Origin: Chloroflexota bacterium
Lineage (GTDB): Bacteria > Chloroflexota > UBA11872
DNA length: 64,000 nucleotides
Direction: 5' to 3'
NCBI GenBank assembly: GCA_965262745.1
Contig: OZ253558.1
Coordinates: forward strand, 1,090,567 to 1,154,566
Within the stretch, counting starts at the first letter, position 1; the number at the start of each line of letters is the position of its first letter. Under the pieces are notes generated by a model. The model made no database searches, was not told where the DNA came from, and saw only the letters and a list, made by a program, of their open reading frames with translations. Positions 9,205 through 31,370 of this stretch are shown piece by piece. The position numbers were made by a program, and so were the translations under genes.

Positions 9205-9341
9205 GGAACCGCGCAGGGTTCTCCCAGCACATTCATAGCCAGTCGGGGTTATGCGAACGTACCCAATCCGGAGGGAACCAGTGCAACTCACGCCTTCATC
9301 CGCCTGCCGTCCAGATCGTATAGCGGTTCATTCGCCACCGT
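9205..9341. repeat. Copy A of an approximately 137-bp imperfect direct repeat (about 85% identity to 11105..11240)
   Basis: Direct alignment of the two stretches matches. The last 60 bp (ccttcatccgcctgccgtcc.gatcgtatagcggttcattcgccaccgt) are near identical. Confidence 0.85.
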
Positions 9342-11012
9342 GAACGTATAGCTCGCCGCGCCGAGCGTGGGCGGCGGGCCGCAGCCCGGAGCGGTGGCGA
9401 CGTCGGGGAGCGCGGTGGCGCTGTGATGCAGGCGCAGCATCAGCTGGTCGTCGGCCTGCCAGGGCGCGGCGCAGGCCCGCCAGCGCCACGCCTGCCCGCC
9501 GGAGTCGGTGGCGGCCGTGGTGGCGTCGTCGAGGCGCAGCCGCAGGGTGACCGTGCCGTCCAGCGCGATGACGTCCAGGTAGTGGTTGGCCAGCGGCGCG
9601 GCCACGGAGAGCTCAAGCTGGAGCTGCTGGGCCTCCCAGATCAGCCGCTGGATGGTGGCGGCGGTGTCGCCGACGGTGAACGCCGCTGGCTGGAGCACGC
9701 CGCGGCTGCCGTCCGCACCCACGCCGGCCCCGATGGCCACCGGATCGAAGAACGCCTCATGCACCGTTCGCGCCGGCGCCGTGACCTGGATCGTGAAGGC
9801 AATGTAGGCGTCGTCCGGCATGAAGTTGCACGGAATATCTTTGTAGTGCTGCGTGTGGTAGTGCACGCGATAGGTGCCGGCGGGCAGCGGACGGGCGGTG
9901 GCCAGCGCGTGGTCGTAGCCAGTGCTGGACTGGTCGTCGTCGTCGATGATCCGGGCCTGGAAGCGCTCGTGGTCCGGGCCGCTGAGCCAATACTGGTTGT
10001 ACTGTGGGTCCGATCGTTCGATCGTCTGCGTGTAAACGTTGGTCACCGTCGCCGTCCCCGAGGCCAGCGGAATGTCGAAGGGGATTGGGGTCAGCGGATC
10101 GGCGCGATTGATCCGTTCCAACAGAATCCTGCCGCGGACACAGTCTTCGTAGCCAGGGACGCCTTCCCCAGCCCGCAGCTCGGCAGCCAGCGCCGCGATC
10201 TTGGCCCGCAGGTCCGTCATGGACACCACCGGCGGCGGCGGCGACTCCGCCCCGTCGGTGATGAACACCGTGCCGGCGCCGTCCGCCGCCCGCGTCTGGC
10301 CCGTCGCCCCGCCCGCGTCCCGCGCCGGCAGCCACGCCCGGCTCAGCGTGTCCACGCTGTAGTCCCACTGTTGCTCCCGGTAGAAGTTGGATCGCGTGAA
10401 TTGCAGCGCGGGCGCAGTCGCGCGCCCCGCCGCCCCGCCGCTCGCCGCGGCGGAGGTATAGGGCTCGAGCGGCGTTTGCAGGAAGAGCACCCCTTGCCGG
10501 TCGTCCCAGGCGGTGACGCGCTGCGCCACCGCATAGACCGCGTCCGCGCGCGCCTCGGCCTCGGTCAGGAAGGTATGGGTGCCGCGCACCACCACCACCA
10601 GCGCCGCCGGCCCCGTCCCCTTGAGGTATTCGTGCACCGTGAAGCGCAGCTCCTGCACCGGGCGATAGGTGGGCGCGACGCCGGGAGTGCTGGGCACCGT
10701 CTCAACTGCCGCCGCCGCCGCCTGCAGCGAGGCCCGCACGATCACCGGCGAGGTGAAGACCTGCTCCTCCAGCGACGGCGCGACCTGCCAGGTGATGTCC
10801 GGATAGTCCTGCACGATCGGGGTCGGCGTCGGCCGCAGGAGCGCCGGCGTGGGCGCGGGCATTGCCGGCGCGGGGTCGGGTGCCGCCATATCTGTGGCCG
10901 GGGCGGTCGCGGGAGCGCCCGCCGGTCCGCAGGCGGCGGCCAAGGCGAGCAGCAGACCGAGCGTCAGGCACCGCCAGGCGCGCCGTGGCAGCATGCGGGG
11001 CCAAGGCGGCAT
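9288..11012 (-). CDS. Secreted lipoprotein of unknown function with a Pro/Ala/Thr-rich linker
   Basis: There is a signal peptide and lipobox (MLPRRAWRCLTLGLLLALAAACG). The ORF is callable from 11132 but the likely start is near 11012. Its last 15 aa (ANEPLYDLDGRRMKA) are encoded by repeat copy A and mirror the C-terminus of the downstream DMGDH gene. Confidence 0.5.
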   Translation of the reverse strand: MPPWPRMLPRRAWRCLTLGLLLALAAACGPAGAPATAPATDMAAPDPAPAMPAPTPALLRPTPTPIVQDYPDITWQVAPSLEEQVFTSPVIVRASLQAAAAAVETVPSTPGVAPTYRPVQELRFTVHEYLKGTGPAALVVVVRGTHTFLTEAEARADAVYAVAQRVTAWDDRQGVLFLQTPLEPYTSAAASGGAAGRATAPALQFTRSNFYREQQWDYSVDTLSRAWLPARDAGGATGQTRAADGAGTVFITDGAESPPPPVVSMTDLRAKIAALAAELRAGEGVPGYEDCVRGRILLERINRADPLTPIPFDIPLASGTATVTNVYTQTIERSDPQYNQYWLSGPDHERFQARIIDDDDQSSTGYDHALATARPLPAGTYRVHYHTQHYKDIPCNFMPDDAYIAFTIQVTAPARTVHEAFFDPVAIGAGVGADGSRGVLQPAAFTVGDTAATIQRLIWEAQQLQLELSVAAPLANHYLDVIALDGTVTLRLRLDDATTAATDSGGQAWRWRACAAPWQADDQLMLRLHHSATALPDVATAPGCGPPPTLGAASYTFTVANEPLYDLDGRRMKA

Positions 11013-11104
11013 CGTGGTCCTCCTAAGGCGTGGGCGTGGGGTGGTGCGCCTGGGTCGCCCGCGCGCCTTACGTGTCATTGTCGGAAAGACCGCAGCGGAT
11101 CTCC

Positions 11105-11240
11105 GGAACCGCGAAGGCTTCTCGCAGCACATTCATCGCCTGTGAGGGCTATGCAAACGTCCCCAATTCGGAGGGACCCCTGCGGCTCACACCTTCATCC
11201 GCCTGCCGTCCGGATCGTATAGCGGTTCATTCGCCACCGT
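11105..11240. repeat. Copy B of the approximately 137-bp direct repeat, covering the DMGDH 3' end and downstream spacer
   Basis: See copy A. Confidence 0.85.
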
Positions 11241-13655
11241 CGCTTGCAGGCGCTCGCCAAAGTAAAGGACGTCGACGGTTGTTCCTGCCGCGGCATGGTC
11301 GACGGGCAGATAGCCATACACGATGCCGCGGCTGATGGAGTGGCCGTAGTTGGCGCTGGTCGCGTAGCCCAGCACGCGGTCGCCGTCCAGGATGGGCTCC
11401 TTGCCCACGACCACGCAGCTGGAGTCGTCGAGCGTCATGCAGCACAGACGGCGCGTCAGTCCCTGCGCCCGCAATTTGCCGAGCGCCTCCCTGCCGACAA
11501 ACTCGCCTTTTCTCATCCGCACCGCGAATCCCAGGCCCGCCTCGAATGGGTTGTACTCGGTGTGGATGTCGTTTCCCCAGAGCCGGTAGCCCTTTTCCAA
11601 CCGCAGCGAGTCGAACGCGCCGCCGCCCGCGGCGATCAGGCCGAGCGGCTGGCCCGCCTCCCAGAGTGCGTCCCACAGCCGCAACCCCTGCTCGGCGGGA
11701 GCGTAGATCTCCCACCCAAGCTCGCCCACATATGAGATGCGCAGCGCCAGCGCGGGAACCCCGCCAACGGTGATCGCCTTCGCGGTCATGTAAGGGAATG
11801 CGGCGTCGCTCACGTCGTCCTCGCAGACGCGGCTGAGCACTTCTCGTGCCTTCGGTCCCCACAGACCGAGGCAGCATTGCCCCGACGAGACATCGGCCAC
11901 GCTCACCGAGCGGTCATCCGGCAGATGCGACCGGATCCAGTCCAGATCGTGCGGTCCCGTAGCTCCGGAGGTGACCACCAGGAAGCGCTCGCTGCCGAGC
12001 CGCGTAACCGTCAGGTCGCACTTGATTCCCCCGCTCGGCGTGAGCATCGGCGTGTAGGTGATCGACCCGACGGGCCTGTCCATCTGGTTGGACGCGAGTC
12101 GTTGCAGTGCCTCAAGCGCGCCGCGCCCGGTCACCTCGAACTTTGCGAATGGGCTGAGGTCGAACAGGGCCGCGCGCTCACGGGTGGCCACGTGCTCGGC
12201 CGCCACCGTCGGCGACCATTCACGCGCCGCCCAGCCGGCACGCGATTCGCCGGTGACGGGGAGTGAGTCGAGCAGGTCCCGGTTGGCGTCGTGCCACTGC
12301 GGCCGTTCCCAACCAGCGTTCTCGAAGAACACGGCGCCGAGTTCCCTTTGCCGCGCAAAGAAGGGCGTCAGCCGGATGTTCCGGGGATTGGTCGCCTGCT
12401 GCCGCGGGTGGATGATGTCGTACACCTCGCGGTATTGCTGCGCCGCCCGCGCCCGGACATAGGGACGGCTGAGCGCGTGGGGGTGGAAGCGCCTGATGTC
12501 GCACTCTCGAAGGTCGGTGGTCGGCTCGCCGTTCACGATCCACTCGGCGACCGCCTTGCCGACGCCTCCGGCGTGCGTGATCCACACGGCCTGCGCCGAC
12601 CAGAATCCGCGCACCTCGGGCGACTCGCCAAGCACAGGAAACCCGTCGGTGGTGAACGAGAACAGGCCGTTGAACTTCCGCGTCAAGCCCGCGCCCACGA
12701 GGCTGGGAAGCACCTCCCGCGCCGCCGCCATCCCACTCTCGAAGTGTTCCGGCGTGAACGACATCTCGGCCGGGGCGATGGGCGCCTCCCCGTGGTCGAG
12801 GATGTCATCCGCTTCCACAACCAGGGGTTCGTGGCGGTATGAGCCAATGCCGACGGCCTCACCCACCTGGCGGAAATACATGGACTTGTCCTGGTGGCGC
12901 ACGATCGGCAGGGAGATGTCCTCGGTGCTGCCGGTCAGGTCAGGCAGCGGCGTGGTAACCGCGTAGATGTGCTGCAGTGGCGACAGCGGTATGGGCACCC
13001 CGGCCTCGGCGCCGAGCCTCGGTGCCCAGATGCCGACGGCAGAGACCACCAGGTCTGTCGTGATGTCGCCCTGGGTGGTGTGCACCGCGGCAATGCGGCC
13101 GTCGGCGATTCCGAAGCCGGTGACCTTGACGTTGCCATGGAACGCCGCGCCGTTTCGCTCGGCCTCGCGCGCCATCGCCTCGGCCGGCCTGGTCGCGTTC
13201 GTCTGGATGTCTGAAGGGACATAGATCGCGCCCAGCACGCGCTCGGAAAGCAGCGGGAAGAGACTGCGCGCCTCGGCGGCGCTGAGCAGGTGGGCCTCTA
13301 CGCCCCAGCTCAGGCCGTAGCCGACCTTTCGTTTCAGGTCGGCGAGCCGCTCAGGAGTCCAAGCCACCTCCAGACTGCCGACGGTTTTGGCGCACGGAAC
13401 GCCGTCGAGCTCCAATTGCGACCACAGATCAACGGTGGTGCGCGCGAAGCTCGTCATGGTCTTGGAAGGGTTGACCTGGAAGACCAGTCCCGGCGCGTGA
13501 GACGTGGAACCGCCGGTTTCGAAGAGTGGGCCCTGATCGACGACAACGATGTCCCGCCACCCGAGCGTTGTCAGGTGGTAGGCCACGCTGCAACCGGCGA
13601 TCCCGGCGCCAACGACGACTGCTCTAGCGTGTCTCGGCATCATGCCGTCAGGCAC
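11187..13655 (-). CDS. Dimethylglycine/sarcosine dehydrogenase-family protein (FAD oxidoreductase N-domain plus GcvT-like C-domain)
   Basis: The 822-aa ORF has a Rossmann GxGxxG N-terminus (AVVVGAGIAGCSVAYHL) and a C-terminal aminomethyltransferase-like folate-binding domain. Confidence 0.8.
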   Translation of the reverse strand: MPDGMMPRHARAVVVGAGIAGCSVAYHLTTLGWRDIVVVDQGPLFETGGSTSHAPGLVFQVNPSKTMTSFARTTVDLWSQLELDGVPCAKTVGSLEVAWTPERLADLKRKVGYGLSWGVEAHLLSAAEARSLFPLLSERVLGAIYVPSDIQTNATRPAEAMAREAERNGAAFHGNVKVTGFGIADGRIAAVHTTQGDITTDLVVSAVGIWAPRLGAEAGVPIPLSPLQHIYAVTTPLPDLTGSTEDISLPIVRHQDKSMYFRQVGEAVGIGSYRHEPLVVEADDILDHGEAPIAPAEMSFTPEHFESGMAAAREVLPSLVGAGLTRKFNGLFSFTTDGFPVLGESPEVRGFWSAQAVWITHAGGVGKAVAEWIVNGEPTTDLRECDIRRFHPHALSRPYVRARAAQQYREVYDIIHPRQQATNPRNIRLTPFFARQRELGAVFFENAGWERPQWHDANRDLLDSLPVTGESRAGWAAREWSPTVAAEHVATRERAALFDLSPFAKFEVTGRGALEALQRLASNQMDRPVGSITYTPMLTPSGGIKCDLTVTRLGSERFLVVTSGATGPHDLDWIRSHLPDDRSVSVADVSSGQCCLGLWGPKAREVLSRVCEDDVSDAAFPYMTAKAITVGGVPALALRISYVGELGWEIYAPAEQGLRLWDALWEAGQPLGLIAAGGGAFDSLRLEKGYRLWGNDIHTEYNPFEAGLGFAVRMRKGEFVGREALGKLRAQGLTRRLCCMTLDDSSCVVVGKEPILDGDRVLGYATSANYGHSISRGIVYGYLPVDHAAAGTTVDVLYFGERLQATVANEPLYDPDGRRMKV

Positions 13656-13721: not shown

Positions 13722-14600
13722 TCAGTATTCATACCGCGCGGCAAACTCCGGCTGATGTTTGCTCAGCCACGCTCGCAGCGGGACGGTCTCGTCGGAGGTC
13801 TCCATGCGCCTACCGGAGCCTTCGATGGTGTCAAGCAGCTGTCGGCGAATCGGGTCCCCTAGGTTGCGCGCCTCGTGCCCGTGCGGTAGCACGTTGTCCG
13901 AGTGCAACCAGCGGTATGCATAAGCGTAGAACAAGACTTTCCGCGTCACTTGCGAGTAGTTTGGACTGCCGCTATGCCACAATCGGGCATCGAAGATCAC
14001 CGCGTCACCGGCACGCGAGAGAATGGGCTCGGCGCCGGGAACAAGACCGCCGGCCCCCGGCTTGACCTCGATGCTTCGTCGTCGGTGGCTTCCCGGAATC
14101 ACCCAGAAATTGCCCATGTCGCGTCTGGTGACATCCGTCAGAAAATAGCCGGCTTTCAGCGACAGTCGCGCTGGAATCTCGATCTCGGCCATGTCAAGAG
14201 ATCTGCGGCCGTTATCTTGATGCCACCCCCCGGGTCCCCGTGGACCGTCGCACGGCTCTGGCGGCGTGAGCATGAGATGCGTGTTTTGCAGGAAGATATT
14301 CCAGCCAAGAATCCCCCAAACCTTAGGAAAGGTCGTCGGGTGATCGATGAGGTTTACGAATGCCGGAGCGAGCCCCACCGCGTTCAAGTGCTGCACCCGG
14401 TTGGTGACGCCGGCATAGGTTTCGCCGGCCGCGAGTCGGCCGTCTCGATGCAGACGGTCGATCACATCGACCAGCCCTGCCGCGTGATCCTGGGTAAGCG
14501 CGCCCTCGACATGCAAATACCCGTTGCGCTCGAAGGCTTTCCCTTCCTCCGCGGTGAGCGCATGCCTCAGGCAGTCGGCGTCCAATGTTTGCCCCCCCAC
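13722..14600 (-). CDS. Phytanoyl-CoA dioxygenase (PhyH)-family Fe(II)/2-oxoglutarate oxygenase
   Basis: A HxD...H facial triad sits in a PhyH-like context (GGWHQDNG ... LWHSGSPN). Confidence 0.7.
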   Translation of the reverse strand: MGGQTLDADCLRHALTAEEGKAFERNGYLHVEGALTQDHAAGLVDVIDRLHRDGRLAAGETYAGVTNRVQHLNAVGLAPAFVNLIDHPTTFPKVWGILGWNIFLQNTHLMLTPPEPCDGPRGPGGWHQDNGRRSLDMAEIEIPARLSLKAGYFLTDVTRRDMGNFWVIPGSHRRRSIEVKPGAGGLVPGAEPILSRAGDAVIFDARLWHSGSPNYSQVTRKVLFYAYAYRWLHSDNVLPHGHEARNLGDPIRRQLLDTIEGSGRRMETSDETVPLRAWLSKHQPEFAARYEY

Positions 14601-15218: not shown

Positions 15219-15232
15219 CGCTTCATCGCTAG

Positions 15233-16210
15233 TTAGTCCTCCGACAGCCCGGCGAACCTTGCCGCGTTCGCGCCGAGGATCAGCCGCTTTTCCTCGTCCG
15301 AGAGGAAGTTCGCATGCGTCGTGACCATCGTGAGGTTCTGCTTGTACGTGCAGCGGCCCTCGGTCCATGGCCAGTCCGTGCCCCACATCACACGCTCCGC
15401 GCCGGCGCCCTTGACCAGCCCCTCCAGTAGCGCGAGTCCGTTGGCGTACGGGTACTCCCATTCCGGGCCTTTCAGCCGGCCGTTCGTCCACGCGATCTCA
15501 TCCCCAAAGAAGATCGTGATGGCGGCGATGTCGGTGTAGAGGTTCTCGTGCCTGTTGAGCAGCCCCACGAAGGGCTCCAACGACGGAAACGGCGGGCGGC
15601 AGTTCGCCAGCCATTGGTCGCCCCAGGTGAAGCACCCCCAATGGGTCAGCAGGAACCGCACCGACGGGAAGTCGCGCGCGACCGGTTCGAATAGGTTGAG
15701 GAACTCCTGATAGTCCGAAACGCAGGCACGCAAGCGAGGATCGTTCCAGCGTTCCCAGGCCATGACGATCGGCACGTCGCGCTCCGCACACAGCTCGTAG
15801 ACCTTGCGCAGGCCGGGGTCGGACGGCCAGTGGCCGGTATAGGCCGGGAACAGCTTGAGCCCCACCGCCCCCGCGTCGAGATCCGCCCGGATCCGGTCGA
15901 GGTAGCCCGGTCGATCGGGGTTGATGTGATCGGTGAACCAGATGAAGCGATCGTGGTCGGCCGCCTTCAGCGCGTCGAGGAAATACTCCTTGGTGATCCG
16001 GTTGATGGCCGGATCGTCCCAGGTGTCGCCGAGGTCCGGCCAGATGTCCTCGGCCGTGTAGCTGATCAGAAAGCACTTGTCCACGCCGGCATAGTTCATC
16101 TCGTCGAGCAGCAGCTCGGCCGACATCGGGTGCCAGGTGTAGTGCATCCGGATACTGCGCTCAACGCCGTGCGCCTTCTCCAAGATGTGGACTTGGGTGT
16201 CGATGATCAT
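15233..16210 (-). CDS. Amidohydrolase-2 family metal-dependent hydrolase (TIM barrel)
   Basis: The protein starts with the metal-ligand motif IDTQVHI and has an HxH-like pattern. Its 325-aa length fits the PF04909-like family. Confidence 0.65.
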   Translation of the reverse strand: MIIDTQVHILEKAHGVERSIRMHYTWHPMSAELLLDEMNYAGVDKCFLISYTAEDIWPDLGDTWDDPAINRITKEYFLDALKAADHDRFIWFTDHINPDRPGYLDRIRADLDAGAVGLKLFPAYTGHWPSDPGLRKVYELCAERDVPIVMAWERWNDPRLRACVSDYQEFLNLFEPVARDFPSVRFLLTHWGCFTWGDQWLANCRPPFPSLEPFVGLLNRHENLYTDIAAITIFFGDEIAWTNGRLKGPEWEYPYANGLALLEGLVKGAGAERVMWGTDWPWTEGRCTYKQNLTMVTTHANFLSDEEKRLILGANAARFAGLSED

Positions 16211-16437
16211 TCGTGCCTCGTTTCTCGGGCATGCGGCCGACGCGTCTTGGTCGCAAAGTCCGCAGCTGTGACCGCAGCGTACTCAGATCGCCCGTGCCTG
16301 GCCCTCAGAGTGCGGGAAGCGGGTCACCCTGACGCAGGCCGGAGCCTCACCTAGCCACCACGGCCCGCGAGCCGCAGGCGAGGAATCTAAGGGGCAGGCC
16401 ATCAGGCTCAGCGCCTGTCGCCTGCTCACTCCTTTCG

Positions 16438-17547
16438 GTGGTCCAGAGCTATGCTGATCCGCATATGGGCGCCGGCTCGGTGCCCGAGGACCCGGCCTAC
16501 CGAACCTCCGCATTGCCCGACCACCGCATCGTTCTCACCTACGACCCTGACGGGACGCTCGTCGACCGCGTCCGCGCCGCACTGCCGCACCGTTCGCTCG
16601 AGATCGTCCGGGCGCTGTCGGCGGACGCCGTGCCCGGCGCGATGCCCGGCACGACGATCTTCTTTGGCAACTACCTCGCCCCGTCGGCGCTGCGACAGGC
16701 GGGCGCGCTGCGCTGGATTCAGACGGTGGGCGCCGGCGTCGACGTGCTGCTGTCCGTCGATCTCGCGGCCACCGACATCGTCGTCACGAATACCAGCGGC
16801 GCCTTCGGCGCCCAGATAGCCGAGCACGCGCTATCGCTCATGTTCGCCCTGGCCCGTCGCCTGCCTGGCGCGCTGCGGTCGCAGGCGGCCCGGCACTACG
16901 CCCCCGAACCCCGCGATGAACTGTTCGAGCTGGCCGGCAAGACTATTGGCATCGTGGGCTTCGGCGACGTCGGCCAGGCGCTGGCGCGGCGCGCGCGTGG
17001 GATTGGCATGCGGGTAATCGCCATGCGGCGACGGCCACGCGGCTCACCTGTAGCCCACCCGTTGATACCGAATCTGCCGCTCGACCCGCTCGCCGGCTCG
17101 GACCCCGACGATCCGTCGGCACTCGCGGACGAGATCGTTGGACCCGACCGCCTGGACGACTTGCTGCGCGACTCCGACGTGGTGGTGAACGCCGCGCCGT
17201 TGACGCCCGCAACGGTGCGCCTCTTCGTCCGGGAACATTTCGCGCGCATGCGGCCGACCGCGTGCTTCATCAACGTGGGCCGCGGTGAGACGGTGGATCA
17301 GGACGCCCTCATCGACGCGCTCCGCGACGGTGTCATCGCCGGCGCCAGCCTGGATGTCACCACCCCCGAGCCGCTGCCGCCCGATTCACCCCTGTGGGCG
17401 CTGCCCAACGTGATTCTCACCGCCCACTACGCCGGCTGGTCCAACACCATGCTCGACCGCATCTACGCGATCTTCACGGACAACCTAGGCCGCTTCGATC
17501 GCGGCGATCCCCTCCGCAACCAAGTGGATGTGCGCGCCGGCTATTGA
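16438..17547 (+). CDS. D-isomer-specific 2-hydroxyacid dehydrogenase-family NAD-binding oxidoreductase
   Basis: It has the NAD-binding motif GKTIGIVGFGDVGQA and the catalytic region FINVGRGETVD...LDVTTPEPLP...LTAHYAGWS. Confidence 0.8.
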   Translation: MVQSYADPHMGAGSVPEDPAYRTSALPDHRIVLTYDPDGTLVDRVRAALPHRSLEIVRALSADAVPGAMPGTTIFFGNYLAPSALRQAGALRWIQTVGAGVDVLLSVDLAATDIVVTNTSGAFGAQIAEHALSLMFALARRLPGALRSQAARHYAPEPRDELFELAGKTIGIVGFGDVGQALARRARGIGMRVIAMRRRPRGSPVAHPLIPNLPLDPLAGSDPDDPSALADEIVGPDRLDDLLRDSDVVVNAAPLTPATVRLFVREHFARMRPTACFINVGRGETVDQDALIDALRDGVIAGASLDVTTPEPLPPDSPLWALPNVILTAHYAGWSNTMLDRIYAIFTDNLGRFDRGDPLRNQVDVRAGY

Positions 17548-17645
17548 TCAGCTCCGCGCTGGCCAGAACGGATCACCAACCTTTTCTGCGATTTGCGCGT
17601 CGGGTTCGGCAATCCGGATCCGATTCGCGACAAGCCTCAACCTGA

Positions 17646-21330: not shown

Positions 21331-21334
21331 TTGT

Positions 21335-23031: not shown

Positions 23032-26000
23032 CTACGCGGGTGTGAGCGGGCTCTCAGCCTCGTCGTGGGCCATTTCAAACAGCCGCGCCAGGGCGTTGGC
23101 CAGGTGCATTTGGCGGGGCGTGCGGCAGCGCACGGCGAGCAAGCCCGGACTGGCCACGACTACCGCCAGGCACTTGGCGCGGCTGGTGGCGACGTTCAAG
23201 CGGTTGAGGCTGTAGAGAAACTCCATGCCACGCGGCGCCTCGTCGGCAGAGCTTGTGGCCATCGAGTAGATGGAAATCGGGGCTTCCTGGCCTTGGAACT
23301 TATCGACAGTGCCGATTCGCAACTCCCGGAGCTCAGGTCGGGATGCAAGCTCCCCGATCTGGCGGTTGTAGGGCGTGATGATGAGCACGTCTTGAGCGGT
23401 CAGCGCGTGGGTCGCGCCTTCGGCGTCAGTCCATGAGGCGCGCGACCGGAGCAACCGGTCGACGCTCTCGGCAATCGCCGCCGCCTCTTCCTCGGAGTCG
23501 CTGATGCGGCGCTCGTGCGACACGGCCACGAAGCGCAGTCCTGTCCCGAGGAACGGGGACGAGCCGGCCAGGTCCAAGTTCTCGCGGCCGGGATGCGCGC
23601 GCAGGTTGTCCTCGTAGAAGACTTCCGAGGTGAACTCACAGATGCTGGGATGCAGGCGCCACGTGCCGTCGAGAAACAGTCCGAAGTCCTTGGGCATCAC
23701 TCGTGCGTCATCGAGTACGTGCGCCAGCACCGAACGATCCGCGCCTGGCGGATGCACGCCCTGCAGCGGCTGATCCAGCTGCTGCGGGTCGCCCAGCAGC
23801 AACAGGCTCTTGGCGCAACGTGCCGAGGCCAAGGCGTCGGCCAGCGACATCTGCCCGGCCTCGTCGATGCAGAGCACGTCCACCAAGCCCTCCGCGTCGT
23901 CACGCGCCCAGAGCCAGGAAGTTCCGCCCACCACGTCAAGCGTTCCTCTGGCCAGGGCCATGCACGCATCCTCGGTTTTCGCGAGGGGTACCGCGTCCGC
24001 GAATTCGGGCTCGGCTGACCGGTAGCGGGTCCGCTGGCCGATCCTGACCGGGACGCCGCGCTCGCGGGCCACCCGCGCCGTCTTCTCCAGCAACTCACCG
24101 ATCACCTTGTGGCTGTTGGCCGTCACGCCCACGCGCTTACCCGCCTCCACGAGGTCCACGATCATCTCGGCACCAACCGTGCTCTTGCCCGAGCCGGGCG
24201 GTCCCTGGATCGCCAGGTAGCTCTCGTCCAGCATCTGCACCAGCCGCCGGGCCGCATCCTGCGCATCCTCGCCGTCCGCCGTCAGCGGTGATCCGTCGGT
24301 CTGTCCAACCCGTGGCGGACAGCGCATCAACAGGTCTCGGGCCGCCTGGTACGGCCCGGGCGCGTCGATCCCGTGCTCAATCACCCACGTCGCCAGATTC
24401 CGAAGGCTCGACGGTTTTGGCCCTGGATTGACATATTCGTAGGCGATCAGTGATGTCGGCGCCGGTGCTGCCCGGTTGGACCCAACCTTCAGGTCGATCA
24501 CGCCGTCTCGATCGTTTACCGCGACCACTTCGCCGATCGAATTTCCGTGCTGATCGCGTGGCCGGTCGCCGACTTCGATCTTGTGGTCCTGTGGCGGGAA
24601 CCGAAAGCTGTAGATCTTGGAACGCGACTTGGGCCTGGGATCGGCCCGACTGCGCACGTAGCTGAGCTGGCCCAGCGCGTCCGTCTCGCCGACTCGCTCT
24701 TCGTCGGTGAGTTCGTCCTTCAGGTGGAAATAGCGCCACCAGAACGCCTTATCCTCGCGCCGGTGCCAGTCGAGCAGCTGCGCCAGGAGCCACCGCCCGC
24801 GTTGGCTCGGATCTTCGAGCGACCTGCCGTCCGTCAAGTCCTCGGGCAGGCCCGCTGTCAGCTGGGCCACGAGTTCCTGCACCTCCCGCTGGGCCTCCGT
24901 GTCCTCGGTCTCTTCGGGAGGCTTGACCGTAGGACGCGGCGGGGCTTCGGCGCCGACTTCGTTCACCAGCGCGGCGCGCTGGACTTCCAGCCACTCGCGC
25001 AGATAGCAGGTGGAAAGACAGTCGTCGCGGTTATAGGCCCTGATCTTCTCCAGCAGGCCGTCCCGGTCGGTCCCGTCCTCGGGTTCGAGCCAGTTCTCGA
25101 ACTCCACGATGCTCTCGCCCGCATCGCGTAGATCGATTTCCCGCTTGAATCCGTAGAGCGGCTCCAGCCGCTTGATGGAGTAGCTCTCCACCGAAGCGCG
25201 AACGCCCTGCCGCACGACGCGGTAGAGGTCCACGAACACACTGCCCCGCAGCAGCTGGTCCACCTCTGACTCACGCGTGGCGTAGCGCCCCGCCAGCCGC
25301 TTCATTGCCCCTGTCTCGTAGGGCGCGTAGTGATAGACGTGCATGTCCGGGTGGCCAGTCCGGCGCTCCATGATGAGGTCGATACAGTCCTCGAACGCCT
25401 TACGCTCGGCCGCCGGCGACACGGTGCCGTCCGCGATCGACCAGAACGCGTGAAACCTGGGGTCGCCCGCGGCGTCCGTCTGTCCCGGCTCGATCACGCC
25501 GAAGAGGTAGTCGATGCCGTCGATCTCGTCCGAGCCATAGAACGGATCGCCCTCCAGGTCCAGGAACAGGTCACCGGGCGACGGCTCCGGCAACAGCCAG
25601 AGACCGCGGTCCGGAACAACCACGTCCTCGCGGTCGCGTTCGGGCGGGATGCGCTCCGAGATCACCTGGCCTTCGCCGCGCACCTGGATCGCCGCCTGGG
25701 CCTGCACCCGGGCCAGCGAAACCGGGCTGACGCCGTCCAGCTGTTCCGGCAGCGGCCGCGACGGATCGGCCAGCCCACCCCGTGTGGTCACGTCAATGGC
25801 GTGCAGGGCGCGTCGCTGGCGGGACGTCAGGTTGGCCACCAACGCCAGATCGTCTTCCCGACGCCACTGGGCTCGGCATTCCTGGTTCCACCTGCAGAAG
25901 TCGCAGTGCTGCATGGGTTCCGGCTTGGTCGAGATTGGAAACGCCGATTCGGAGTCGTCGAGCAGCGTCTCGAACTGCCGCGCGACCAGGCGGTAGTAGG

Positions 26001-26577
26001 CCCCGTAGTCGGCGACCCGAAGGCTCGCGGTCCTGCGCGCGACGCCGCCCAGCACCAGATGCATCCGTTCCGGCGGCCGCCCCTGCATTCTCCCGAGCAG
26101 GTCTGAATACATGCTGATCTGCAAGACGGCGGGGGCCGTGGGTTGCCGCGCCAGCTTGGTGTCCCAGACTTCATAGCTCCATGCCCCGAGGTCGCTGGGT
26201 TTCTCGACGCGGCGCAGGAAGTCCGCGTACCCCAGCCGCCGGTCGCCGAGCAGCACGGCCTGGTAGATCACGTCAACGCCATCTCGCATCGCCTGCAGCG
26301 TGGCGGCGTGCTCGGATTCAACCACTCGGGACGGAGACACGGTGTCGGGCGGCCGGATTTCCCTGATTCCCAGGTTCTCGGCGTCCAGCGATTCCAGGAA
26401 GCGCGCCTCATACTCCCGACCGCGCCGCGCCAAACGGTCGAGCACTGGGTCGTCACGAAACGGCCGTTTGAGGTCATGCAGAACCGCGGCGCGCTCCAGG
26501 TTGGCCAGGTGCCGGCACTCCAGGAACGCGACCAGATCGGTGGCGGAGTAGACCAGACGCCTATCAATCAGTTGCAT
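23032..26577 (-). CDS. RecB-like nuclease + RNaseH-like domain + SF1 (Upf1/Dna2-like) helicase fusion protein (TM0106-family N-terminal region)
   Basis: The 1181-aa ORF has an N-terminal RecB/Cas4-like region with a Cys cluster (HCDFCRWNQEC). It has a C-terminal Walker A (GPPGSGKST), a Walker B (CIDEAGQ) and SF1 motifs (GDPQQL, VATSRAK). Confidence 0.7.
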   Translation of the reverse strand: MQLIDRRLVYSATDLVAFLECRHLANLERAAVLHDLKRPFRDDPVLDRLARRGREYEARFLESLDAENLGIREIRPPDTVSPSRVVESEHAATLQAMRDGVDVIYQAVLLGDRRLGYADFLRRVEKPSDLGAWSYEVWDTKLARQPTAPAVLQISMYSDLLGRMQGRPPERMHLVLGGVARRTASLRVADYGAYYRLVARQFETLLDDSESAFPISTKPEPMQHCDFCRWNQECRAQWRREDDLALVANLTSRQRRALHAIDVTTRGGLADPSRPLPEQLDGVSPVSLARVQAQAAIQVRGEGQVISERIPPERDREDVVVPDRGLWLLPEPSPGDLFLDLEGDPFYGSDEIDGIDYLFGVIEPGQTDAAGDPRFHAFWSIADGTVSPAAERKAFEDCIDLIMERRTGHPDMHVYHYAPYETGAMKRLAGRYATRESEVDQLLRGSVFVDLYRVVRQGVRASVESYSIKRLEPLYGFKREIDLRDAGESIVEFENWLEPEDGTDRDGLLEKIRAYNRDDCLSTCYLREWLEVQRAALVNEVGAEAPPRPTVKPPEETEDTEAQREVQELVAQLTAGLPEDLTDGRSLEDPSQRGRWLLAQLLDWHRREDKAFWWRYFHLKDELTDEERVGETDALGQLSYVRSRADPRPKSRSKIYSFRFPPQDHKIEVGDRPRDQHGNSIGEVVAVNDRDGVIDLKVGSNRAAPAPTSLIAYEYVNPGPKPSSLRNLATWVIEHGIDAPGPYQAARDLLMRCPPRVGQTDGSPLTADGEDAQDAARRLVQMLDESYLAIQGPPGSGKSTVGAEMIVDLVEAGKRVGVTANSHKVIGELLEKTARVARERGVPVRIGQRTRYRSAEPEFADAVPLAKTEDACMALARGTLDVVGGTSWLWARDDAEGLVDVLCIDEAGQMSLADALASARCAKSLLLLGDPQQLDQPLQGVHPPGADRSVLAHVLDDARVMPKDFGLFLDGTWRLHPSICEFTSEVFYEDNLRAHPGRENLDLAGSSPFLGTGLRFVAVSHERRISDSEEEAAAIAESVDRLLRSRASWTDAEGATHALTAQDVLIITPYNRQIGELASRPELRELRIGTVDKFQGQEAPISIYSMATSSADEAPRGMEFLYSLNRLNVATSRAKCLAVVVASPGLLAVRCRTPRQMHLANALARLFEMAHDEAESPLTPA

Positions 26578-26723
26578 CGCCGATTCACCAGCCCGTCCCC
26601 ATGGCCGACGGCTTCACCCCGGCCACGCGTGCGATCAGCGCGAGCGCGTTGCCAACATACTCCGCGAGGCGACACCGGGCCAGATTGTGGGCCGCCTGCC
26701 GCGGCATGAAGCTGGGGCGACGC

Positions 26724-27452
26724 TCACAGCGGCAGCAGGTGCCCCGCTTCGCGCAGCCGCTGACGCCGCTGTTGCGCGTCCGGCATCGCTCTAACCACCA
26801 GCCCCCAGAAGTCCGGCCCGTGGTTCTTTATTGACAGGTGCGCCAGCTCGTGCACCACGATGTACTCGACAAGGGCAGGCTCCAACATCATCGCCCGCCA
26901 GTTGAAGCGCAGCGTGCCGTCCGGCGCGCAGCTCCCCCAGCGCCGGCGTTGATCGCGGATCAGCACGCGCGGCCAGTCGCCGTGACCCAGGCGCGGCCAC
27001 CAGCGCTCCACGCTAGTTGGCAGGCGGTCTGCCGCCCGCCTCCGATACCAGGCCACGAGGGCGCGCTGGGCACTGCGGGTTCGCTCACTATCGGACGCCC
27101 CCGTTGGCACCGTGACGCGGAACCGCCAGTGATCGAAGCGCACGCTCACCGACCTGACGTCGGCGTGCTCGACCAGCAAACGCACGTTGCGGCCCAGGTA
27201 AGGCAACGTCTCACCGCTCACAAAGCGCTTCGGCGCGGCGGCCAGCGTCTCCGCGGTGCTGCGGCGCATGATCCAGGCCGCCCGCTTGCGCACGATCCCC
27301 CGCAACTCCTCGGCGGGCGTCGAAACAGGCGCGGCGACCTGGACCCCGCCCCCGTCCACGGTGATCTGCACCGTCTTCCTGCGCCGCTGACTGCGCTGCA
27401 CCTCGAACTCGATCGTGCTCTCGCCGAAACGGACGGATCCCCGCTCACTCAC
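26724..27452 (-). CDS. DUF45/YgjP-like M48-type zinc metallohydrolase
   Basis: The HExxH motif (VVHELAHL) sits in a YgjP-like context. The ORF overlaps the hsdR stop by 4 nt. Confidence 0.65.
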   Translation of the reverse strand: MSERGSVRFGESTIEFEVQRSQRRRKTVQITVDGGGVQVAAPVSTPAEELRGIVRKRAAWIMRRSTAETLAAAPKRFVSGETLPYLGRNVRLLVEHADVRSVSVRFDHWRFRVTVPTGASDSERTRSAQRALVAWYRRRAADRLPTSVERWWPRLGHGDWPRVLIRDQRRRWGSCAPDGTLRFNWRAMMLEPALVEYIVVHELAHLSIKNHGPDFWGLVVRAMPDAQQRRQRLREAGHLLPL

Positions 27453-30400
27453 GATCCCGACCTCTGACGCGCCACGTCCACGATCTGGTGCGCCAGCTCG
27501 TCCAAGCGCTCTTCCGTGAAGTCCCCCGTGCCTCGCAGCTCCCGCTTGATATCCCGGCGCATCTCGCGCTGCACTTCAAGGTTCGACTGCCAATCGATCA
27601 CGTCGCTGTGACGCTGGATGGCGCGTTCGATCGCGCGCGCCACGGCCGTCGTCTGCTCGTCCAGGGCAGTGCGATAGGAGCCTGAAGCTTCGCCCGCGTC
27701 CACGCTCGGAGAGGCCAGCAACTCGTAGACCGCAAACGACACTGGCGAGAGCCCGTGCTGCGCGGCGATGTCCGCTTCGCTTTGGACCTGCTTGCGCAAT
27801 TCGGCCAGTCGCCGGCAGGCCTCGGCAGCGTCGATCAGCCGCTGACGCAGTTCCTGGATGATGCGGTCCAATTGCTCCGAGAGCTTCTCATAGAACGCCG
27901 GGTTTTCCGCCAGTCGCTCGTTGATCTGGGCGCGGACCGCGTGCTCCATCAGCGACGCCCGCGCTTCGTCGTGCGGCAGGTCGGCAATCTTCGCCTCGAA
28001 GTCCTGATCCAGGATCGAGAGCGGCTGCATCAGGCTGCGCACCTTGGCGTCGATGCGCTCGTCGATCAGGCCCTTCACCTTCGCGCCAATATCGGTCCAA
28101 TCCAACTCCGCGTCCTCGCGCAGGAACTGCGCCCGCACATAGGCGCGAATCGCCGTCAGCCGCGCCAACCGCTGTACGTAGGGCTCGGCGCCCGGGTCCG
28201 GCAGGTAGCGGTCCATCAGGCGGGCGAACTGACGGTAGTCCGCGCTGAATCGCTCGAACAGGTCGGCCTTGAACGCGTCCTCCGAGGCGGCATCCGGCGC
28301 AAACAGCGCCGCGCAGTCCCACACGTTGCTCAGGTCGCGGCCCTTGAAGTGCGACTCCGCCTGCACCGCCGCGGCCTCGATCGCCGGCCCGGGATCCTCC
28401 TCCAGCTCGCGCATGGAGTCCTGCACGTCTGGCCAGTCGAACGTCGCCAGCGCCGCCTCCAGGTCCCGCGAGACCCCGTGATAGTCGATCACCAGGCCGT
28501 GCCGCTTCTCCGTGTCCACGTTGTCCGGCCGGTGCGCGAAGCGCCGGTTCACGCGGGCAATCGCCTGCAGCAGGCCGTGTTCCCGCAGCCCACGGTCCAG
28601 GTAGAGCACCTGCTCCACCGGCGCGTCAAACCCGGTCAGCAGCATGTCCACCACCACCAGGATCTGCGGCTCGCCCTCGGGGTCCACGAACGCGCCGGTG
28701 ATCTGCTCCTGGTTGAGATCGCGCGCCGCGGCGAACTCCGGGCCGTCGTTGTTATCGGTGGTGATGATCGGATAGGCGCTCAGCCCAAAGGTCTTCAGGC
28801 GCTCCGCGTAGCGCAGCGCCGCCGCCCGGCTGGGCGCCACCACCTGCGCCTTGAACCCGTTCGGCTGCACCTTGGCCTTGAAGTGCTGGGCAATATCCAG
28901 CGCGATCATCTCGATGCGACGCTCCGCCTCCGCCACCGTCTCCTTGTTCGCGTAGCGCCGCCGGATGCGCGCCTGCGTCTCCTCGGACTCCTGGCCGAAC
29001 ATCTCCTCGAACAGCGTGTCCAGCGTCTCCGGCCCCTCGATGTGCAGTTCCGGCAGCCGCGCCTCGTAGAGGATCGGCACGGTGGCGCCGTCGGCGACCG
29101 ACTGCGGAATCGTGTAGGAGTCGATCAGCGAACCGAATCGCCGCATCGTGCTGTGACCGAAGTCCTTGTCGATGGGCGTGCCCGTAAAGCCGATCAGCGC
29201 TGCGTTGGGAAGGGCCTTGGACATGCGCGCGCCCAGCAATCCGTATTGCGTGCGGTGCGCCTCGTCCACCATCACCACCACCTGCTCCGATGGGTTCAGC
29301 ACATCCAGCCGGCCCTTGGGAGTCGTCAGCGCGTCCTCGAACTTCTGGATTGTCGTCATCACCGTGCGGCCGCCGCCGCTTCTCAGCAGCCGGCGCAGGT
29401 TGCGGGCGTTGGTCGCCTGCTCAGGCGCCGGAAAGCCGCAGCGTTGGAAGGTGCCGCTGATCTGCCGGTCCAACTGCGTGCGGTCGGTCACCACCACGAT
29501 CGTCGGGTTGTGCAGCCGCGGCTCGCGCCGCAGCTTGGTGGCCAGCCACAGCATCGTCAGCGACTTGCCCGAGCCCTGCGTGTGCCACACCACCCCGCCG
29601 CGCTCCTCGGGACGGCGGCCCGTCAACAATCGCTCCAGCGCCGCTCGCACCGCGCGGTACTGCTGATAGCGCGGCAGCTTCTTCACCAGCTTGCCGGCCT
29701 GCGGCTCGTAGACCACGTAGTCGCGCAGGATGTCCAGTAGCGTGGCCGGCGCCAGCAGCCCCACGATCAGCCGCGCCTGGCCCTCTGGTTCCACCCCGAA
29801 GCGCTGCCGCGCCTCGGCTTCCGAATAGGGCAGCACCGACTTCCATTCCACGTAGGCGTTCTCGGGCGCGCCCAGCGTCGCGTACGCCGCCGCGGCTCCG
29901 CAGTGCGCCACGCACAGCAGGTTGGTGTGGAACAGCTCCGGCGCGCCCGTCCCGTGCCACTCGGGCCCCGCTTCTTGGTAGCGACGCAGCTGGCGCACCG
30001 CCTGCGTCCGCCACACGTCCAGCAGCGACGGCGATTTCGCCTCCATCACCACCAGCGGCACGCCGTTCACGAACAACACCAGGTCCGGCTTCACCACCCG
30101 CTGGTCGTCTTCCTGGTTGCGCCGCTCGTTACCCCGACGCACCCGGAACTGCGTCGTCACCACGAACTCGTTCAGCCCGCCCTCCGGATGATCGAAGTCG
30201 AAGAAGCGCGCAATCCGGCTCTGGCGACCACTGGGCGTGTCCACCCCCAGCGGCATGCCGTAGATCAGGTGCTCGTGCACGCGCTGATTGCGGGCCATGC
30301 CGCTGAAGTCGCTGCGCTCCAGATCAGCCACCACCCAGTCCGCCTGCGACTCGGTCATCCAGGCGTTCAACCGCAGCAACGCCCGCCGCAACCGCCCCTT

Positions 30401-30538
30401 TAGCAACACCTCCCGCTCGTCCCCGCGCTCCGCCGCCAGCGTTTCGCGTGGGACGTACGTCCAGCCCAGTCTTTCAAGCAGCTCCCGCGCCGGGTTCTCG
30501 GCGTGATGGAGCTCATTGAGCCTGGCGGGAGTGGTCAT
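27449..30538 (-). CDS. hsdR: Type I restriction enzyme R subunit (HsdR)
   Basis: The 1029-aa ORF has helicase motifs (DEAHRTQ, FTGTP) in HsdR-type architecture. It lies in an operon with hsdS and hsdM. Confidence 0.9.
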   Translation of the reverse strand: MTTPARLNELHHAENPARELLERLGWTYVPRETLAAERGDEREVLLKGRLRRALLRLNAWMTESQADWVVADLERSDFSGMARNQRVHEHLIYGMPLGVDTPSGRQSRIARFFDFDHPEGGLNEFVVTTQFRVRRGNERRNQEDDQRVVKPDLVLFVNGVPLVVMEAKSPSLLDVWRTQAVRQLRRYQEAGPEWHGTGAPELFHTNLLCVAHCGAAAAYATLGAPENAYVEWKSVLPYSEAEARQRFGVEPEGQARLIVGLLAPATLLDILRDYVVYEPQAGKLVKKLPRYQQYRAVRAALERLLTGRRPEERGGVVWHTQGSGKSLTMLWLATKLRREPRLHNPTIVVVTDRTQLDRQISGTFQRCGFPAPEQATNARNLRRLLRSGGGRTVMTTIQKFEDALTTPKGRLDVLNPSEQVVVMVDEAHRTQYGLLGARMSKALPNAALIGFTGTPIDKDFGHSTMRRFGSLIDSYTIPQSVADGATVPILYEARLPELHIEGPETLDTLFEEMFGQESEETQARIRRRYANKETVAEAERRIEMIALDIAQHFKAKVQPNGFKAQVVAPSRAAALRYAERLKTFGLSAYPIITTDNNDGPEFAAARDLNQEQITGAFVDPEGEPQILVVVDMLLTGFDAPVEQVLYLDRGLREHGLLQAIARVNRRFAHRPDNVDTEKRHGLVIDYHGVSRDLEAALATFDWPDVQDSMRELEEDPGPAIEAAAVQAESHFKGRDLSNVWDCAALFAPDAASEDAFKADLFERFSADYRQFARLMDRYLPDPGAEPYVQRLARLTAIRAYVRAQFLREDAELDWTDIGAKVKGLIDERIDAKVRSLMQPLSILDQDFEAKIADLPHDEARASLMEHAVRAQINERLAENPAFYEKLSEQLDRIIQELRQRLIDAAEACRRLAELRKQVQSEADIAAQHGLSPVSFAVYELLASPSVDAGEASGSYRTALDEQTTAVARAIERAIQRHSDVIDWQSNLEVQREMRRDIKRELRGTGDFTEERLDELAHQIVDVARQRSGS

Positions 30539-30906
30539 GGGCTCTCCCCGCGGGAGTCCTCCAACATCTTTCGCAGCTGCGGCAGCATGCTTGGGATCGC
30601 ATCTTGAATTATCGACCAGATGATGACGTCACTGATGTGCAAATAGGAGTGCGCCAAGCGATTGCGGACCCCGATGATTGCGCGCCAGGGAATCATGGGA
30701 TATGCCTCACGCGCGTCGGATGGGATATGCGTTGCCGCCTCACCGATCAGTTGGATGTTGCGCAACGTGGCGTCGTGGATGAGACCGTCGGCTGCGAAGG
30801 CGTCCTGATCCAGTCCATCCGTATATGACAGGACTTTCTCGGCGAACTCGATCATGTCCTGAACGTAAAGATTCCAGCGTCGACCTTCTTCATGGGTCTC
30901 ACACAT
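30535..30906 (-). CDS. HepT-like (DUF86) toxin of a HepT/MNT toxin-antitoxin pair
   Basis: The RX4HXY-like motif is present (RNRLAHSY). The start at 30906 overlaps the MNT stop by 8 nt. Confidence 0.65.
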   Translation of the reverse strand: MCETHEEGRRWNLYVQDMIEFAEKVLSYTDGLDQDAFAADGLIHDATLRNIQLIGEAATHIPSDAREAYPMIPWRAIIGVRNRLAHSYLHISDVIIWSIIQDAIPSMLPQLRKMLEDSRGESP

Positions 30907-31216
30907 CCACGGCCTCCCGTTCCACGTGCGGACGCATTTCGGCCCGAACGTCCTCCCGGGTCGCCAGTTCCACCGGTCGTTGCAGCAGGTCTTCCAGGTA
31001 GAACTGGGCTCCGAAGTAGGTCCGCCAGTTCGGAGGAGCGTCGAACCGCACCAGGATGTCAACGTCGCTCCCGTCGGTACCTTCGTCCCGGGCATAGGAG
31101 CCGAACAGGGCGAGATCCGCGACGCCGAATCGCTCCGCCAGCACCGGCCGGTGGGCTCGGAGCATCTCCAGCACTTCCGCTCTGGTCATGGCGTCACTCC
31201 GTCGAGGCGGGCGCAT
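30899..31216 (-). CDS. MNT-type nucleotidyltransferase antitoxin (PF01909-like)
   Basis: The 105-aa ORF has the GS...D.D nucleotidyltransferase motif (LFGSYARDEGTDGSDVDILV). Confidence 0.75.
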   Translation of the reverse strand: MRPPRRSDAMTRAEVLEMLRAHRPVLAERFGVADLALFGSYARDEGTDGSDVDILVRFDAPPNWRTYFGAQFYLEDLLQRPVELATREDVRAEMRPHVEREAVDV

Positions 31217-31370
31217 GCATTACGACTGGCAGCCTGGCATCCTCGTGTTCGCCCCCGCGCTCCGCCGCCAGTGTTTCCCGTGGCACGAAGGTCGAACCCA
31301 GCTTCTCAAGCAGCTCTCGGGCCGGGTTCTCGGCGTGATGGAGCGCGTTGAGCTTCGCGGGCTGGCTCAC
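31194..31370 (-). pseudogene. Duplicated 5' end of hsdR (about 40 codons), open as a 58-codon GTG-initiated ORF ending just before the MNT start
   Basis: The reverse complement translates to VSQPAKLNALHHAENPARELLEKLGSTFVPRETLAAERGG. The authentic HsdR N-terminus is MTTPARLNELHHAENPARELLERLGWTYVPRETLAAERGD. DNA identity to 30400..30538 is about 85%. Confidence 0.7.

Follow-up and report, generated by a model that had tools for sequence, protein, structure and literature searches.

Duplicated gene ends in the window

The stretch of DNA analyzed here (the window; 64,000 nucleotides of contig OZ253558.1 in assembly GCA_965262745.1, from an uncultured Chloroflexota bacterium) contains an anti-phage defense hotspot between a D-2-hydroxyacid dehydrogenase (2-HADH) gene and a tRNA-Leu gene, and in and near this hotspot the ends of several genes are present twice. 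Self-BLASTN of the window returned five non-trivial repeats, and a separate repeat search agreed with this result. Three of them, E1 (9205-9341 vs 11105-11240; 137 bp, 87% identity, 1 gap, E = 2e-40), E2 (17349-17545 vs 20187-20383; 197 bp, 88%, E = 7e-66) and E3 (30409-30529 vs 31241-31361; 121 bp, 83%, E = 5e-30), are the diverged pairs that the initial annotation had described as an intact gene end matched by a truncated fragment, and all were recovered at 83-88% identity. A fourth pair, with a layout like that of E1-E3, is formed by the tRNA-Leu gene (35718-35771 vs 22790-22843; 54 nt, 89%, E = 1e-12). Each pair consists of the end of an intact gene and a terminal fragment; the duplicated ends are the 3' end of a dimethylglycine-dehydrogenase-like (DMGDH-like) gene in E1, the 3' end of the 2-HADH gene in E2 and the first 40 codons at the 5' end of hsdR in E3. 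The fifth repeat is a weak, direct one (43512-43559 / 56260-56304; 49 bp, 82%, 5 gaps, E = 1.6e-4) that probably arose by chance.

Genes in the window were called from the GC content at third codon positions (GC3) together with Pfam domains, and the relatives' loci with which the window was compared are numbered L001-L040. As the window belongs to a metagenome-assembled genome, the repeats might reflect an assembly artefact in which strain haplotypes had been joined in series. However, the repeat structures recur in independent assemblies from other samples (L005, L016, L017, L018 and L020), which excludes such an artefact. Closed chromosomes are also among the assemblies that carry the same structures with their private decay mutations, and the 12-17% divergence between copies is far above strain-level variation, leaving this explanation with a negligible probability. 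The events are common to relatives 88-96% identical to the window, indicating that they are old rather than recent.

The dehydrogenase fragment and its resident neighbors

The intact 2-HADH gene (16438-17547, plus strand) ends in copy A of E2, which comprises its last 199 bp (17349-17547), and copy B (20187-20385, plus strand) is the truncated 3' end of a second, diverged dehydrogenase allele. The homology starts abruptly inside the gene, with an abrupt left boundary at 20186/20187, and stops exactly at the stop codon, TGA in copy A and TAG in copy B. The differences between the two copies are distributed in a characteristic way as follows: First, the 24 differences split 4/3/17 over codon positions 1/2/3 (P = 2e-4). 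Second, by comparison with eleven other alleles, 7 changes are private to fragment B, and these are spread 2/3/2 over the codon positions. Third, once the private changes are set aside, 15 of the 17 remaining differences fall on third positions (P = 4e-6). Judged from these sequence comparisons, fragment B was a functional allele, ~8% diverged, at the time the structure formed, and has decayed since. Such a split, with the divergence of an allele before the event and even decay after it, offers a simple and reusable test for telling an imported fragment from a local duplication.

The same split bears on the possibility that the gene ends were duplicated in tandem long ago and diverged, with unrelated genes inserted between the copies later, an outcome against which the initial annotation had set its own proposal. 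An orphan fragment left by such a duplication would decay evenly over the codon positions, whereas the differences in E2 and E3 are mostly at third positions, the changes unique to the fragments are few and evenly spread, and the fragments share states with the alleles of other lineages. For E2, the third-position excess marks a diverged functional allele and thus rules out local duplication. Tandem duplication would suit the age of the structures, which genomes of 88-96% identity have in common, and it would suit E1, whose copies share derived states, differ little in their coding part and appear to have been duplicated in place (see below). As an explanation for the repeats as a whole, we consider it very improbable.

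The block between the E2 copies (17548-20186, minus strand) contains a 140-aa open reading frame (ORF), an ADP-ribosylglycohydrolase (ARH) gene and a gene for an EEP-family protein (17646-19826, minus strand), together with 360 bp upstream of them, and had been taken for foreign cargo. The gene order in the relatives does not bear this out. In L038, L039, L040 and L021 (the last a short contig from metagenomes of the Joint Genome Institute, JGI), the 140-aa gene begins right after the dehydrogenase stop codon and is followed by the ARH and helicase genes in a tight operon without any fragment; in L007 and L009, the 140aa-ARH(-EEP) genes likewise lie directly behind the dehydrogenase stop. Furthermore, the identities of the dehydrogenase, 140-aa, ARH, EEP and helicase genes vary together across L005, L009, L003 and L038. 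Since the 140aa-ARH-EEP genes are adjacent to the dehydrogenase in relatives and their divergence is congruent with that of both flanks, they are its resident, vertically inherited neighbors.

This result weighs on a Campbell-type single crossover, the route named in the initial annotation, in which a circularized foreign fragment, with cargo and part of the target gene on it, integrates and displaces the old gene end. The layout of an intact copy, a block and a truncated copy in direct orientation is exactly as this model predicts, the E2 homology ends at the stop codon, and the fragments of L005 and L020 keep their helicase-side flank with different genes separating them from the intact copy; the rhs loci provide a precedent (PMC2935791). 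However, the block between the repeats must be the incomer in this model, whereas in E2 and E3 it is a conserved neighbor whose divergence is congruent with that of the flanks. A crossover within 121-197 bp at 83-88% identity, with a longest identical run of 24-25 bp, would also be inefficient, and the reciprocal-chimera pattern expected from it is not visible in the two copies. We therefore regard a Campbell-type origin as unlikely.

A comparison with cargo-free relatives had been proposed for these events. Junctions lacking the block exist for both E1 and E2, but the E2 junction, found in L001 (a relative of 93-95% identity), looks like a secondary pop-out between the two repeats and not like the ancestral state. 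L001 has a single dehydrogenase copy that resembles an intact allele up to site 160 and fragment B after it, and then continues into the HEC-01 flank described below. Because a deletion between copies A and B would yield just such a junction, it is no proof that 140aa-ARH-EEP was inserted. When identity between the window and L001 was profiled in sliding steps along the dehydrogenase, no recombination breakpoint was visible.

The dehydrogenase fragment differs in length among the loci: L020 has 58 bp of it, L005 134 bp, the window, L016 and L017 197 bp, L002, L035 and L036 415 bp, and L008 826 bp. These five breakpoints leave no fixed crossover position in the dehydrogenase and, with no recombinase in the window, disfavor a site-specific mechanism. 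The L017 fragment is a mosaic: it carries the leftmost private changes of the window's fragment (sites 3, 11 and 16) and, past those sites, corresponds to another allele that lacks the later decay changes of fragment B, ends in TGA and is followed by a reverse-transcriptase cassette. A crossover therefore took place inside the fragment.

Some further observations concern this part of the locus. The operon converging on the dehydrogenase (17646-19826 and 23032-26577 in the window; 11036-15983 in L038) comprises the 140-aa, ARH and helicase genes and, in some genomes, the EEP gene. L009 has a 209-bp 3' fragment of the helicase gene (92%) with the intact helicase gene on the far side of an EEP copy, which is a scar like E2, and it also contains a second EEP copy (79%) and a second amidohydrolase copy (85%); the repeats of this locus lie at 12568-12775 / 13917-14124, 12821-13619 / 17673-18471 and 8617-9685 / 19532-20613. 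Downstream of the helicase in L007, there are kilobase-scale direct repeats of 87-91% identity (15334-17538 / 17594-19798 and 17580-18541 / 20134-21095). The 95 bp that separate the 140-aa gene from the dehydrogenase stop were considered as a trapped 3' piece of the former, and this was rejected (alignment score of 17, with shuffled sequences giving a mean of 15 and a maximum of 28). No second tRNA-Leu or integrase remnant was found in 19827-20186 and 20386-20677, and a search for dehydrogenase ends on viral contigs found none.

A variable defense slot framed by fragments

Beyond fragment B lies a variable defense slot (20386-22789, minus strand) with a GC content of 0.57, the lowest in the neighborhood, which here holds the HEC-01 genes for an AAA_21 ATPase (21335-22618, minus strand) and a DUF4276 protein (20677-21408, minus strand). 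On the other side of the slot is the truncated tRNA-Leu, consisting of the 3' 54 nt (22790-22843, minus strand; 89% identical to the intact gene), and the intact tRNA-Leu(GAG) gene (35718-35803, minus strand) forms the right border of the hotspot. The conserved right-hand neighbor of the slot in every context is the 1181-aa RNase_H_2 / superfamily 1 (SF1)-helicase protein (23032-26577, minus strand), whose PADLOC similarity to Mokosh MkoA/MkoC is only partial. What lies between the fragment of the dehydrogenase and that of tRNA-Leu, or the helicase flank, differs from relative to relative: the slot holds HEC-01 in the window and L016, a defense-type reverse transcriptase in L017, GajA/GajB (Gabija) in L035 and L036, a 1506-aa protein in L002 and nothing in L005. 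The tRNA-Leu fragments that were found measure 43-54 nt only.

The frame also occurs next to integrases. The tRNA-Gly island of L002, L035 and L036 contains a truncated tyrosine-integrase gene that runs in frame into the final 415 bp of the dehydrogenase, and in L008 a tRNA-Leu gene and an integrase are followed by the 826-bp dehydrogenase fragment (L002 9515-10663; L035 10001-10651; L036 1278-1928; L008 7688-10824). In both of these integrase-bearing contexts, the defense cassette and the helicase come after the fragment.

These cases raise the possibility that the repeats are left from decayed site-specific integrative elements, i.e. integrase islands that insert at gene ends, supply a replacement end and have since lost their integrases from the window. 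The tRNA-Leu 3' fragment is the classical signature of such elements, the integrase by the tRNA-Leu and 826-bp fragment of L008 and the integrase pseudogene fused to the 415-bp fragment in the tRNA-Gly island of L002, L035 and L036 point the same way, and the icd/icdC pair of e14 is a direct analogue (PMC13626634). Nevertheless, Pfam searches of the ORFs between 7.8 and 36 kb detected no transposase, integrase or other recombinase, and tblastn of the L002 integrase and of the integrase-dehydrogenase fusion P0041 against the whole window gave no integrase match. The five dehydrogenase breakpoints share no identical core at a fixed position, and the blocks, at 0.7-2.6 kb, are tiny. The integrase of L002 and L035, moreover, is cut short by the junction, hence the junction itself is illegitimate. 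As a general account of the repeats, integrative elements thus appear quite improbable; in the dehydrogenase and hsdR cases site-specific integration is unlikely, and only for the tRNA-Leu fragment by itself does it remain a good explanation.

Two other types of element were considered and rejected. A transposon with a long target duplication does not fit, as there is neither a transposase nor a terminal inverted repeat at the block ends, and the repeats (54-197 bp, 83-89%) are not short perfect duplications; the initial annotation had likewise found them much too long for the target duplication of a transposase or integrase. A diversity-generating retroelement does not fit either, since the mismatches involve all four bases in both copies and are not adenine-specific; the Pfam search of the same 7.8-36 kb ORFs found no reverse transcriptase.

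The frame of dehydrogenase 3' fragment, cassette, tRNA-Leu fragment and helicase might act as a portable landing pad, beyond being a mere scar. We raise this tentatively, and rather doubt it, on the basis of the crossover within the L017 fragment and the presence of the frame both at the native locus and in the tRNA-Gly/tRNA-Leu islands, with a different defense system each time. If true and general, core-gene fossils would let defense cassettes move between hotspots and islands by homologous recombination, without a recombinase of their own.

An hsdR fragment within the type I restriction-modification operon

The third pair lies among the minus-strand genes for YgjP, hsdR, HepT, MNT, a Ymh protein, a 262-aa ORF, hsdS and hsdM (26724-35623), which include a type I restriction-modification (R-M) operon. 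The first 130 bp (30409-30538) of the intact hsdR (27449-30538, minus strand) form the intact E3 copy, and the truncated copy (31241-31370, minus strand) corresponds to the first 40 codons of a diverged hsdR allele. The block between them is an MNT-HepT toxin-antitoxin pair (30535-31189, minus strand; MNT 31189-30899, HepT 30906-30535), so that the order on the coding strand is Ymh, hsdR fragment, ~50 bp, MNT, HepT and intact hsdR. The GTG start of the fragment overlaps the stop codon of Ymh (GTGA), and the ATG of the intact hsdR overlaps the stop codon of HepT (ATGA).

As in E2, the block between the repeats turned out to be a conserved neighbor and not the foreign cargo that it had been taken for. 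MNT-HepT-hsdR-YgjP are contiguous, without the fragment, in L019 (95%) and L020 (85%). The homology of these two loci to the window covers 26720-31205 and starts again from 33959 (hsdM / hsdS 5' end), with an abrupt change at both positions in the case of L019. Within the variable middle of the R-M operon (31371-33958, minus strand; GC 0.55), which comprises the Ymh/HEPN-like gene (31367-31924), the 262-aa ORF and hsdS, only the conserved core of hsdS matches L019 and L020. The identities to L019 and L020 are 95 and 91% for hsdM (34094-35623, minus strand; 94-95% to L019, congruent with hsdR), 95 and 89% for hsdR and only 84 and 77% for the fragment. Because the identities of hsdM and hsdR to these loci match, the two genes share one history and the hsdS-262aa-Ymh-fragment segment is the odd one out.

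The differences between the E3 copies are distributed 2/9/14 over the codon positions (P = 0.016), and five replacements private to the fragment (E>A, W>S, Y>F, D>G and R>H) are consistent with its decay. We propose that the segment would have been imported from an operon in which Ymh stood directly before hsdR, anchored by homology in hsdM or the hsdS 5' end, and that its other end, 121 bp into the donor hsdR, would have come to lie upstream of MNT through an illegitimate join.

Between hsdS and hsdR (31367-32716), the domainless 262-aa ORF and the Ymh/HEPN-like protein (PADLOC PD-Lambda-3_B, E = 6e-18) may form a two-gene defense module. An HsdM_N fragment upstream of hsdM in L019 was examined as a possible close duplicate and rejected, as it shows only 27% identity over 40 residues and a different signature.

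The duplicated tail of the DMGDH-like gene

E1 lies between the intact DMGDH-like gene (11187-13655, minus strand; DAO-FAO_M-GCV_T-GCV_T_C domains) and a GcvT-like gene (7823-9064, minus strand), on either side of an inserted ORF that we call cargo 1 (9288-11012, minus strand), which is lipoprotein-like, 3'-truncated and without a Pfam domain. Copy A (11105-11240, minus strand) consists of the last 54 bp of the DMGDH-like gene, the stop codon, ~12 bp and a ~70-bp element; copy B (9205-9341, minus strand) repeats the DMGDH tail, from which the inserted ORF takes its last 18 codons and its stop, together with a second ~70-bp element. The repeat is therefore a composite of a 69-bp gene-end duplication and an unrelated, dispersed ~70-bp element (84%). 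In L001, the E1 repeat is only 69 bp long and the element is absent behind copy B. The element (~70-80 bp; minus-strand GGTTCCCTCCGGATTGGG...GGGAGAACCCTGCGCGGTTCC) is found at 9205-9279 and 11105-11179 of the window and also at an unrelated locus (L005 6370-6450). An Rfam search with it gave no match at E <= 1; a structured RNA was rejected on this ground, in favor of a short dispersed repeat.

Copies A and B differ at 2 positions in the 57 bp of the coding end and stop, and they share GAA and CTA where all of the cargo-free outgroups (L003, L006 and L038) have GAT and CTC. Given these shared derived states, A and B are closest to each other, which points to duplication in place or gene conversion. 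In L003, L006, L038 and L039, which have no cargo, the DMGDH stop and the GcvT-like start are 50-75 bp apart. The cargo-1 family is very large, and its full-length members have 900-1000 aa and cadherin domains; they contain ...GAASY(A/T)FTVAED... with another 350-430 residues behind it. In the window, the ORF has ...GAASYTFTVA and is cut there, passing into the DMGDH tail residues NEPLYDLDGRRMKA and the stop, with Thr-Val-Ala common to both.

E1 may thus be best described as the insertion of a truncated surface-protein paralogue behind the DMGDH-like gene, by which 69 bp of the target would have been duplicated in place; the join would be explained most simply by a template switch or microhomology at the shared ACGGTGGCG / Thr-Val-Ala. 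As both copies are translated, they were later kept similar by selection or gene conversion. E1 is older than and separate from E2 and E3, and the three events are not of one kind. The single shared route suggested by the initial annotation is consequently not supported, while a route that uses homology fits the diverged alleles of E2 and E3. Similarly, a diverged allele of the target was found in E2 and E3, with their third-position excess and allele states of other lineages, and not in E1, whose copies share derived states. Nor is the cargo uniformly low in GC: the content of cargo 1 is 0.72, above the window mean of 0.66.

Between the window and L001 (2694-4376), the inserted ORF is 65% identical at the protein level and 76% at the DNA level, and the flanking genes are 93-95% identical. 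These Chloroflexota carry a hugely expanded cargo-1 family; one 3.28-Mb contig alone has several paralogues, and many have cadherin domains. No full-length paralogue of cargo 1 occurs in the loci compared.

Origin of the junctions and direction of transfer

With moderate confidence, we favor the explanation that diverged relatives recombined in and near a defense hotspot, by homology at one end and illegitimately at the other, and that the repeats are the scars of these junctions. Incoming DNA of a related lineage with a different gene order would pair homologously in one conserved gene, and its other end, lying within the donor's version of a conserved neighboring gene, would be joined illegitimately, with scarcely any homology or none. 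A short terminal stretch of that gene, in diverged form, would thereby be trapped beside the resident intact gene; in a mirror-image version, the resident gene end would be displaced instead. The same process could account for the dehydrogenase and tRNA-Leu 3' fragments that frame the HEC-01 slot and for the hsdR fragment on the imported hsdS-262aa-Ymh segment. Once trapped, the fragments decay, yet, as L017 and L001 show, they remain active in recombination, serving as homology arms for cassette swaps and for deletions between repeat copies. What the comparisons show is the anatomy of the events, the descent of the E2 and E3 fragments from diverged functional alleles, the varied dehydrogenase breakpoints, the turnover of the slot and the mosaic fragments; the one-ended illegitimate mechanism, the direction of transfer and the mode of DNA entry are our inference.

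As to the direction, the DNA beyond the fragments has a GC content of 0.57 and 0.55, compared with 0.61 for the supposed cargo. On the strength of the codon-position pattern, the congruent divergence and the GC content, we place the foreign, low-GC DNA on the far side of the fragments (HEC-01 for E2; hsdS-262aa-Ymh for E3). The congruent divergence and GC content favor, without proving it, the fragment-side DNA as the probable incomer. The donor would be a diverged relative in the cases of E2 and E3, in which the third-position excess is accompanied by states shared with alleles of other lineages; E1 has no such indication.

Several points weigh against this explanation. First, the dehydrogenase fragment in L005 and L020 abuts the helicase flank, its stop codon is followed by the same GCCGCCGCG, and different genes separate it from the intact copy, a pattern that also fits new DNA entering at the 3' end of the gene and pushing the old end aside; the mirror-image version, whether by one-ended recombination or by Campbell-type crossover of a circular intermediate, has the same topology as the version we favor. 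Second, no donor with a dehydrogenase-X-tRNA-Leu or Ymh-hsdR adjacency was found among the relatives compared. Third, integrases adjoin the dehydrogenase fragments in L002, L035, L036 and L008, and site-specific elements therefore do mobilize these blocks at some point; taken by itself, the tRNA-Leu pair fits a classical integrase event equally well. Fourth, L001 may itself be a deletion product. Finally, the third-position excess in E3 is modest, the homology at the E3 junction ends abruptly after ...GAGG with 2-4 shared bases at most, and the E1 microhomology (ACGGTGGCG) is seen in the paralogues at the protein level only.

Relation to known systems

Homology-facilitated illegitimate recombination, in which one end of the incoming DNA is homologous, was reportedly described by de Vries & Wackernagel 2002, Prudhomme et al. 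2002 and Meier & Wackernagel 2003, all cited in PMC5361080. The pattern in the window belongs to a kind of scar already known, not to a new mechanism of insertion, and several systems resemble it. One-ended illegitimate (homology-facilitated) recombination has been proposed for the effector-immunity arrays of the T6SS (type VI secretion system) in Vibrio cholerae (PMC5361080). These arrays have in common with the window diverged donors, and orphaned pieces and shifted neighbors after successive events; a homologous anchor in a conserved gene and an illegitimate other end would be shared as well. In contrast to them, the scars here are in a dehydrogenase, a tRNA-Leu and hsdR and not in toxin genes, and the mechanism is deduced from comparative anatomy only.

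The displacement of rhs C-terminal ends, for which a circular-intermediate model was put forward (Jackson et al. 2009, PMC2935791), is similar in layout. As in rhs and contact-dependent inhibition (CDI) loci, an intact gene is followed by a block and by a dissociated 3' tip that starts with homology to the gene end (E2 in the window, L005, L016, L017 and L020); as in rhs, the tips come from diverged alleles, and homologous recombination with retained tips can reshuffle the locus. Unlike rhs, the window has no polymorphic-toxin logic and neither immunity genes nor an array of alternative functional tips, and its fragments are decaying by-products. Furthermore, the rhs model takes the middle block as the part acquired laterally, whereas the evidence from E2 and E3 favors the fragment side as the incomer.

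At icd, recombination between the two icd copies flanking e14 deletes the insert and gives a chimeric gene (PMC13626634). The insertions of e14 and phage 21 at icd, with icdC as a 3' pseudogene, and those of tRNA islands are comparable in that a diverged 3'-end duplicate brackets the insert, and the chimera resembles that inferred for L001. However, those elements use a tyrosine integrase at a fixed core, whereas here the breakpoints range between 58 and 826 bp and no integrase is present in the window; the tRNA-Leu pair is the only one that could be placed in this class.

Chromosomal defense hotspots are known to be flanked by core genes, such as the core defense hotspots of Pseudomonas, and defense genes are known to occur within type I R-M operons. 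The slot is like the former in its fixed position and interchangeable defense cassettes (HEC-01, Gabija and reverse transcriptase). It differs in that its flanks are fossil core-gene fragments and in that the same frame also occurs in integrase-bearing tRNA-Gly/tRNA-Leu islands.

The window provides a worked example of the turnover of a defense hotspot in a poorly studied phylum. Behind this turnover there seems to be only ordinary recombination of diverged relatives, with no dedicated mobile-element enzymes, and the gene-end fragments record its events. The window also calls for caution in annotation, as a stretch that separates an intact gene from its truncated duplicate need not be foreign. 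Outside the region of the repeats, the window encodes a 345-aa methyltransferase with a Sterol_MT_C domain (3629-4666; E = 4.5e-17) beside an MMPL-family gene, which is unusual for a bacterium.

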